NCBI GenBank assembly: GCA_030614005.1
Contig: JAUWKS010000009.1
Span: 41,068-73,067, forward strand
Direction of reading: 5' to 3'
Source of the DNA: Candidatus Heimdallarchaeota archaeon
GTDB lineage: Archaea; Asgardarchaeota; Heimdallarchaeia; JABLTI01
DNA length: 32,000 nt
The translations under genes and the position numbers were made by a program. The stretch's first letter is position 1, and every line of letters starts with the position of its first letter. This document shows positions 30,109 to 30,861 of the stretch, piece by piece. The notes under the pieces were generated by a model, which saw nothing but the letters and a program-made list of their open reading frames with translations, did not search any database and was not told where the DNA came from.

Positions 30109-30861
30109 ATGCCTATTGCTAGACAAGTAATGATACTAACAAAAGATGGATTGCTCCTTTTACACTACAAATTTAGAGGGGCAGAAGCATTGGCGATGGA
30201 AACAGATCCAGACCTATTCTCAGGAATGCTGTCAGCAATTCTATCGATAGCAAAGGAAACAACAGGGGGATTAGTACAAACAATAAACCAGGATAATTAT
30301 AACGTACTAGTAAGTGAAGGGGAGAAAATTTATGTCCTACTATTTATTGATGAAGAAAGTAGAGAATTATACAACATAGCGAAGGCAATGGTAGGGAGAT
30401 TTGAAGCGCAATTCAAAGAGGAATTGGGCGGAATAATTACTGACGTAACAATATATCAACAATTTATAGAAGAACTAGAAGAAATATACGCAGAAATATT
30501 TAGAGTAGATGCAGAACTATTAGCAAAAATAATACCTGAAGTAACTCAGATAAAAAACGTATCCATTTTTGAAAAACCAATGAACCATCAAGTATACAAT
30601 GGACCAAGAGATCCATTTGTAAGTGAATATGAACAGCAGTTTCAAGAAGTGGCACTGAAGATAATTGAATCATATGCAAACTTTGCCGAGAAAACATTGG
30701 AGTTCCATAAAAGAACGATTATAACGTTCAAAAATAGAGCAATTGTTCTTGAGGATTTGGGGTCACATGTGCTAATGTTTATCGGGGAACACGTAGACGA
30801 TATTCTAACAAAAATAAAACGAATACGCAAAAAAGCCGGTTTGCCGGCAGAGAGAAAATAA
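30109..30861 (+). CDS. Longin-like N-terminal domain fused to a roadblock/LC7-like C-terminal domain
   Basis: aa 1-130: VMILTKDGLLLLHY...DPDLFSGMLSAILSIAKE..GGL.QTI...YNVLV.....YVLLFID....L......MVGRFE.QF, the longin beta-beta-alpha-beta-beta-beta-alpha pattern. aa 135-245 show an alpha-beta-beta-alpha-beta-beta-beta-alpha roadblock-like pattern. Confidence 0.7.
   Translation: MPIARQVMILTKDGLLLLHYKFRGAEALAMETDPDLFSGMLSAILSIAKETTGGLVQTINQDNYNVLVSEGEKIYVLLFIDEESRELYNIAKAMVGRFEAQFKEELGGIITDVTIYQQFIEELEEIYAEIFRVDAELLAKIIPEVTQIKNVSIFEKPMNHQVYNGPRDPFVSEYEQQFQEVALKIIESYANFAEKTLEFHKRTIITFKNRAIVLEDLGSHVLMFIGEHVDDILTKIKRIRKKAGLPAERK

Follow-up and report, generated by a model that had tools for sequence, protein, structure and literature searches.

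The DNA analysed here, called the window throughout, is a stretch of 32,000 nucleotides from a Candidatus Heimdallarchaeota archaeon (GenBank assembly GCA_030614005.1, contig JAUWKS010000009.1, positions 41,068 to 73,067 of the forward strand), and corresponds to contig C59 of a 3.6-Mb assembly (G000) with a completeness of 90%. The forward strand carries an open reading frame (ORF) of 250 codons from its ATG start, and its product, P0001, is predicted to consist of an N-terminal longin domain and a C-terminal roadblock domain. The gene and its parts are as follows.

30109..30861, + strand: gene of the longin-roadblock protein P0001, stop codon included (ORF list and translation, homologues, substitution rates)
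30092..30099, + strand: possible ribosome-binding site GGGAAGTG, 9 nt before the ATG, judged from the sequence alone
30115..30504, + strand: predicted longin domain, residues 3-132 (AlphaFold2 model 2, VIA-align, a paralogue in the same genome)
30205..30240, + strand: conserved stretch DPDLFSGMLSAI, residues 33-44, at the start of helix α1 (alignment of 23 orthologues; helix 34-52 of model 2)
30505..30846, + strand: predicted roadblock domain, residues 133-246 (both AlphaFold2 models, VIA-align)
30571..30609, + strand: motif E-K-P-M-N-H-x-V-Y-x-G-P-R, residues 155-167, a candidate functional site (alignment A1)
30628..30738, + strand: predicted homodimer interface formed by α2′ and β3′, residues 174-210 (two-copy prediction)

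Among 5.8 billion proteins searched by word index, 44 homologues of the same length, about 250 residues, are 55-94% identical to P0001. Their source labels read just 'hypothetical protein', and the bins from which they come are mostly named Heimdallarchaeota or 'Asgard group'. The mean column identity across the 23 aligned orthologues of alignment A1 is 77%, and the ratio of nonsynonymous to synonymous substitution rates (dN/dS) against the two closest orthologues is 0.050 and 0.075, with dS of about 0.5. The 44 homologues and the dN/dS values of 0.05-0.075 show that the ORF is a real and strongly constrained gene. Its G+C content of about 35% is like that of the remainder of the window. The AT skew is 0.30 at positions 30001-32000, where the + strand is strongly A-rich, and ranges from -0.11 to 0.08 elsewhere in the window.

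Sequence searches of Pfam, NCBIfam and the PDB with P0001 gave nothing above threshold. The sub-threshold Pfam matches are Thioredoxin_6 (20.8 bits, cut-off 27) and, on the N half, Robl_LC7 (14.3 bits, cut-off 23). A thioredoxin identity was considered and rejected because the predicted model has no likeness to thioredoxin. All leads from feature searches of the ESM Atlas stay below 0.9, the whole protein being assigned to Fuz_longin_1 at 0.84 and the C half to Robl_LC7 and MAPKK1_Int at 0.81-0.84. When 1.8 billion representatives were searched exhaustively with HMMER, a wider set of proteins with both halves emerged, 243-288 residues long and 20-31% identical. In the same search the N half occurs by itself in proteins of 128-151 residues, at the C-terminus of proteins of 600-750 residues and, in one case (P0078), behind a Ras domain. 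Fused longer relatives of 439-2000 residues were looked for and none was found, in a search that is weak as evidence, and a relative of 401 residues (P0064) has only a helical tail in addition. An internal duplication was also rejected; a profile-profile alignment of the N half with the C half by hhalign gave a probability of 0.85%, the two halves not being detectably similar.

Two AlphaFold2 models of P0001 were built. Model 1, based on 23 close orthologues, has a predicted local distance difference test score (pLDDT) below 50 in the N half and so was used for the C domain only, whereas model 2 (m2e3ac1230b3e), based on the 57-sequence alignment A3 that includes distant relatives, has a pLDDT of 82.7 and a predicted template modelling score (pTM) of 0.59. 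Structural relatives were sought by an exhaustive VIA-align search over 48,161 PDB representatives. In model 2 the N domain consists of β1 (4-11), β2 (16-21), α1 (34-52), β3 (58-61), β4 (64-70), β5 (74-80), α2 (85-107) and α3 (114-131), with no helix ahead of β1. This ββ-α-βββ-α-α order is that of a canonical longin as defined previously (PMC10933270, PMC8833172, PMC6864590). The best VIA-align matches of residues 3-132 are Sec22 (3egd_C; Z 13.2, 120 residues aligned, root-mean-square deviation (rmsd) 2.7 Å), Trs23 (3cue_A; Z 13.1), VAMP7 (4afi_B; Z 13.0) and TRAPPC (Z 12.1), and further matches at Z 10-12 include TRAPPC, the small subunits of COPI and AP, and SRX. The top longin superpositions of the predicted model cover 109-128 residues at an rmsd of 2.5-3.3 Å. 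Consistently, the same genome encodes a 174-residue longin that shares 30% identity (E 7e-9) with the N domain and, at 26.1 bits, attains the cut-off of Fuz_longin_1, and the family profile matches Trs23 in the PDB at E 0.94 over profile positions 3-60, a weak sequence signal at the matching position. Residues 3-132 thus are predicted to fold as a canonical longin. The DPDLFSGMLSAI stretch is the best conserved part of this domain, Asp-35, Leu-36, Ser-38, Gly-39 and residues 41-45 (L41-L45) being invariant in the 23 orthologues.

The C domain, with a pLDDT of about 90 in both models, is composed of α1′ (135-145), β1′ (151-155), β2′ (161-164), α2′ (169-196), β3′ (202-207), β4′ (210-216), β5′ (220-226) and α3′ (229-242). 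This is the α-ββ-α-βββ-α order by which a full roadblock is defined (PMC10933270, PMC8833172, PMC6864590). In VIA-align, residues 133-246 match the MK-D1 roadblock (7yh1; Z 11.3), MP1/p14 (2zl1_B; Z 11.2), MglB (6hjm_A; Z 10.9) and the C-terminal domains of RagA/Gtr1 (Z 9-11), with 103-113 residues aligned at an rmsd of 3-4 Å, and the independent, shallower model 1 yields the same list of roadblocks. By sequence, the family profile matches the C-terminal domain of Gtr1 best among PDB entries (E 0.048, profile positions 108-228). In the models, therefore, residues 133-246 fold as a full roadblock. Every lettered position of the motif at residues 155-167, which covers β1′, the following loop, β2′ and the turn into α2′, is invariant in alignment A1, and paralogues with 25-30% identity retain a weaker E-x-P-x3-Q-V-Y/F-T pattern there.

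These models agree with part of what the first-pass annotation of this gene had proposed from the letters of the DNA. It had divided the protein into halves of about 130 and 110 residues, close to the boundaries found here, and had taken the DPDLFSGMLSAI helix as a mark of a longin. The helix lies at residues 33-44 within α1 of the longin model, and the longin assignment of the N half is borne out by the order of strands and helices and by Z values of 12-13 over 115-128 residues against solved longins. The roadblock-like character of the C half is likewise upheld by the order of its elements and by Z values of 10-11 against MglB, LAMTOR and Rag C-terminal domains. The models showed neither an N-terminal fold other than longin nor a PAS/GAF fold in the C half, the two outcomes set beforehand as speaking against the annotation. 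Its statement that no GTPase domain is fused to the protein also stands, as P0001 has no Ras, Arf or Gtr1 match, and so does its statement that the window has no small-GTPase gene, none being found there by the Ras and Gtr1/RagA Pfam models in six frames at E ≤0.001.

A two-copy prediction, with alignment A3 for each copy, was carried out in three runs along with three controls. The interface score (ipSAE) is 0.75 for the homodimer and 0.00 for the best of the three controls, the partner pLDDT is 76, and the runs share at least 90% of their contacts. In calibration, the mark was reached by 20 of 30 solved homo-pairs and by one of 23 solved single chains. The predicted interface is symmetric, with contacts between residues 203 and 203 and between 204 and 204, has the canonical geometry of a roadblock dimer and contains no longin residues. 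The most likely state of P0001 is therefore a symmetric homodimer held together by the α2 helix and β3 strand of the predicted roadblock. Since roadblock dimers have already been solved, the homodimer prediction may echo similarity to them.

N- and C-domain hidden Markov models (HMMs) were searched over every ORF of the genome. At E ≤1e-5 there are 28 other longin-bearing ORFs, many of which have the longin at the end of proteins of 700-1860 residues. The C domain was not found a second time, P0001 being the sole longin member that carries it. The large longin-bearing ORFs include C68:20086-25614, C68:25665-31085, C103:6784-12327 and C75:568-6159, and the relatives of them that were scanned have no Pfam match. 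The 174-residue stand-alone longin (L003:1402-1926, - strand, on G000:C63) has an ORF of 557 residues with a Ras domain (L003:1972-3381, - strand) just upstream, 1.2 kb away. An ORF of 242 residues (L015:2143-2871, - strand; G000:C24:69642-70370) has a weakly longin-like N half, scoring E 0.013 with Fuz_longin_1, E 0.13 with Intu_longin_1 and E 0.02 with the N-domain HMM. Its C-terminus has long hydrophobic stretches resembling membrane helices, so that it would be a membrane-anchored longin with no evident SNARE motif.

In a survey that covered 300 genomes of the phylum, the only true orthologues found, with 63-95% identity, are in the family to which the window belongs, in 8 of 10 genomes. 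Paralogues with 25-34% identity were found in another two families of this class, in 18 of 21 and 2 of 2 genomes, and a genome often has two to four of them. Certain paralogues form convergent adjacent pairs in the sister family, such as P0080 and its neighbour, which are 37% identical (L012:5001-5744, + strand, and L012:5744-6490, - strand). Further pairs of this kind are at G127:C14:58521-59977, G210:C207:902-2384 and G237:C81:37643-39111. The convergent paralogue pairs suggest heterodimers, as in RagA/RagC or Mon1/Ccz1.

The genes that flank the longin-roadblock gene are the following.

31040..31588, + strand: HD-type gene of 182 residues, next downstream (9 distinct ortholog loci; PF01966 recorded for orthologues)
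28897..29850, - strand: divergent gene of a DAGK/YegS-type lipid kinase, upstream (Pfam DAGK_cat and YegS_C)

In each of the 9 distinct ortholog loci the HD gene comes next downstream, on the strand of the longin-roadblock gene. Its product, 80-96% identical within the family, surpasses the longin-roadblock protein in conservation. A PF01966 match is recorded for HD orthologues with 81-86% identity, and the copy in the window has none at E ≤0.05. The kinase gene adjoins in 8 of the 9 loci, and genes further out differ. The locus that lacks it comes from one of the two closest relatives, with 94% identity (L017:2765-3028; G234:C13), in which 263 nt separate the longin-roadblock gene from a gene with a FIST sensor domain. 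In the window the FIST gene is a single ORF of 417 residues at 27627-28880, and in two related genomes, at L004:5514-6765 and L019:532-1765, it is divided into FIST_N and FIST_C ORFs with an overlap of a few codons; the division is either a frameshift or a true split. The spacer after the longin-roadblock gene (30915-30940) has seven consecutive T and then the self-complementary AAAAACGTTTTT, which is unique in the window at 30922-30933, and a partial repeat of it. The two closest genomes retain the seven-T run, which would suit archaeal termination, and the palindrome is not conserved in the closest orthologous spacers. A scan of the window for bacterial-type promoters is uninformative for an archaeon.

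How could such a protein work? In the proposed mechanism P0001 would be a soluble two-domain protein, with the longin (3-132) directly joined to the roadblock (133-246). The α2 helix and β3 strand of the roadblock would pair two copies, as in MglB, LAMTOR2/3 and the Rag C-terminal domains, and the dimer would leave the two longin domains, with their highly conserved α1 helices, free for another partner. The dimer could then serve as a non-enzymatic platform that binds one or more of the small GTPases of the genome in trans and acts as an exchange factor, a cofactor of a GTPase-activating protein (GAP) or a scaffold, with the invariant E155-R167 motif and the longin α1 helix as candidate contact sites for the small GTPase. 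The layout would be like that of a Rag dimer in which longins replace the GTPase domains, or like the part of a Mon1/Ccz1-type subunit that comprises its first two domains. Since every well-studied longin/roadblock assembly is analogous, we infer that the protein may be such a platform; that it binds a GTPase, and which one, would follow by the same analogy. Candidate partners are plentiful, because the genome has 44 matches to the Ras model, 22 to the Gtr1/RagA model and 13 to the roadblock model, and about 46 small-GTPase genes. The reading of P0001 as a homodimeric longin-roadblock platform for a small GTPase in trans is, as a whole, somewhat probable.

Several observations weigh against this reading. 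The fold evidence for both halves comes throughout from predicted models; no Pfam longin model reaches its cut-off on P0001, PF19036 giving no match at E ≤1; no Pfam family matches residues 130-250 at E ≤10; and the genome-wide search with PF03259 gave no match on contig C59. Longin and roadblock folds also serve without GTPases, as in SNAREs, the sigma subunits of adaptors and dynein LC7. The loop between β1 and β2 has the sequence K-D/E-G-L and lacks the GP motif of GAP-type longins. Contig C59 as a whole has no small-GTPase gene by the same Pfam models and threshold as in the window. Moreover, 2, 3 and 4 of the 29 longin ORFs of the genome lie within 1, 3 and 5 kb of a GTPase gene, compared with 1.4, 2.6 and 3.5 at random, so that gene context gives the link to GTPases no support. 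This lack of enrichment agrees with MK-D1, in which GTPase genes are generally outside operons with longin or roadblock genes (PMC10933270).

If the flanking genes are taken as the guide instead, P0001 may be unrelated to GTPases and act as a regulatory or ligand-sensing partner of the HD-type hydrolase or the DAGK/YegS-type kinase. The conserved positions of these two genes amid varying outer genes favour such a partnership, as does the single hairpin terminator-like site on the + strand, which is located after the HD gene. However, all 9 ortholog loci come from a single family, in which common descent may by itself account for the synteny; the HD family also occurs in families from which no longin-roadblock gene was recovered (f2, 25/30 vs 0/28; f5, at 70% identity); the paralogues are flanked by different genes, and where two of them have an HD gene nearby, that gene is unrelated to the HD gene of the window; and the seven-T run, present after the gene in the three closest genomes, would suit archaeal termination. 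This partnership seems quite unlikely. A role as a structural adaptor without nucleotide-switch partners, linking proteins or membranes like dynein LC7 dimers or the longins of SNAREs and sigma subunits, is about equally improbable: the best matches of the N domain include Sec22, VAMP7 and the AP/COPI small subunits, the same genome has a longin-like protein with apparent C-terminal membrane helices, and many of the 28 other longin ORFs place the domain at the ends of 700-1860-residue proteins, but no SNARE motif, membrane segment or coiled coil follows the two domains of P0001, and fold matches fail to separate adaptor classes from GTPase platforms. The first-pass annotation had seen in P0001 a single-chain version of a longin/roadblock heterodimer, in which the two domains pair inside one chain, with the monomer itself serving as the GTPase platform. 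In known complexes longin and roadblock domains do pair through equivalent edges (PMC10933270), and in P0001 little sequence lies between the two domains, helix 114-131 being followed shortly by helix 135-145. The edge needed for intrachain pairing, that is, α2/β3 of the roadblock, is however the confidently predicted homodimer interface, which is free of longin residues, and because both arrangements need the same edge, the homodimer prediction speaks against the single-chain one. In addition, the pTM of 0.59 despite good per-domain pLDDT indicates that there is no confident contact or placement between the domains, and the three-residue break would leave scant slack for folding back. The single-chain heterodimer is thus very unlikely, and this part of the annotation is not supported.

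A further possibility is that the family is a specific relative, either a sister or a precursor relic, of the core formed by the first two longin domains (LD1 and LD2) of the tri-longin Rab guanine nucleotide exchange factors (GEFs), and works as a Rab-type exchange factor. In a Foldseek search with the whole chain of model 2, the 14 best PDB matches are all tri-longin Rab-GEF subunits (MON1A/CCZ1, Fuzzy/Inturned and HPS1/HPS4), with E values of 4.9e-7 to 4.7e-5 and collinear across both domains, and VIA-align matches spanning residues 1-246 are found with Fuzzy (Z 13.5), Mon1 (Z 11.9) and HPS (Z 11.3). In Mon1, Ccz1, Fuzzy, Inturned, HPS1 and HPS4 alike, LD1 is a canonical longin and LD2 is of the roadblock type (PMC8833172, PMC6864590). 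In agreement with such an ancestry, the 174-residue paralogue of the N domain stands at the Fuz_longin_1 cut-off, and related longins have sub-threshold Fuz_longin_1 and Intu_longin_1 matches. On the other hand, tri-longin subunits have a third, lamtor-type domain (LD3) and a helix αX, both of which are missing from P0001, which ends 8 residues past the roadblock C-helix. The four Pfam models of LD1 and LD2, PF19036, PF19037, PF19031 and PF19032 (Fuz_longin_1, Fuz_longin_2, Intu_longin_1 and Intu_longin_2), give no match on the gene even at E 1-10. The rmsd across both domains is 6-15 Å, so the domain arrangement is only loosely similar, and the Mon1-Ccz1 heterodimer pairs through LD1 and LD3 (PMC8833172), whereas P0001 is predicted to pair with itself through the roadblock. 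Because of the missing third domain, the silent Pfam models, the high rmsd and the different predicted pairing, P0001 is placed outside the tri-longin family. Furthermore, Asgard genomes join the two folds in several orders (8yqg; PMC10933270), so independent fusion is plausible, and the orthologues found are all from one family and the paralogues from one class. A specific kinship with the tri-longin core is accordingly unlikely. The related scenario, in which tri-longin activators arose from such a homodimeric archaeal module by gene duplication and the gain of a third domain and the family preserves a module related to LD1-LD2, is similarly doubtful; its duplication step has a counterpart in the convergent paralogue pairs already present in the sister family. 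No paper linking 'tri-longin' with Asgard was found in the paper library searched.

The platform reading of P0001 bears on a wider question. Longin and roadblock domains are eukaryotic platforms that regulate the Rab, Rag and Arf switches by which organelles are defined, and their expansion in Asgard archaea is a main argument for an archaeal origin of membrane trafficking. To our knowledge, no Asgard longin has so far been matched to its GTPase. P0001 is small, soluble, highly conserved and apparently homodimeric and has both folds in the Mon1/Ccz1-type order, and these properties make it practical to assay for binding and nucleotide exchange with the roughly 46 GTPases that a single genome provides. 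It also offers a concrete case in which the question of a prokaryotic forerunner of the tri-longin exchange factors can be posed. Even as no more than a lineage-specific fusion, it would enlarge the Asgard longin/roadblock repertoire by a family that lacks annotation.

Longin/roadblock fusions are already known in Asgard archaea, which corrects an impression that the architecture is new, and the family of P0001 is an undescribed variant within this known repertoire. The Lokiarchaeota Roadblock-Longin protein (PDB 8yqg, 8yqk and 8yql) is, like P0001, an Asgard protein with one roadblock and one longin, and its roadblock (Z 9.7) and longin (Z 9.6) both match the P0001 model. The order is opposite, the roadblock coming first, and its sequence was retrieved by no homology search with the P0001 family; no paper naming this protein was found in the library searched. 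By sequence, the N domain of P0001 belongs to the expanded family of Asgard Fuz_longin_1-like longins. Longin-GTPase-roadblock proteins have been described in MK-D1 (PMC10933270), and these have a GTPase domain in between, which P0001 lacks. In Rag/Gtr GTPases a G domain stands before the roadblock, whereas P0001 has a longin at that place.

Longins of the FLCN/SMCR8/NPRL2 type, which act in GAPs, and their Heimdall look-alikes (PMC12290439) share the longin fold and the occurrence in Heimdallarchaeia with P0001. Their GP motif lies just before or at the start of β2 (PMC12290439), where all orthologues of P0001 have the loop K12-D/E13-G14-L15 instead, and the G-P-R triplet of P0001 sits in the roadblock domain after β2′ (165-167), unlike the GP motif of GAP longins. 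The roadblock domain itself has the same α-ββ-α-βββ-α fold as MglB, LAMTOR2/3 (p14/MP1), the Rag/Gtr C-terminal domains and the MK-D1 and Thor roadblocks (Z 10-11). The α2/β3 edge of its predicted dimer is the one used by MglB, LAMTOR2/3 and Rag/Gtr, from which P0001 differs in that its C domain has no Pfam Robl_LC7 match and that a longin, not a GTPase domain, stands in front. The subunits of tri-longin Rab-GEFs, about 400-700 residues long compared with 250 for P0001, have the same order of LD1 and LD2 and the same order of secondary-structure elements as the two domains of P0001.

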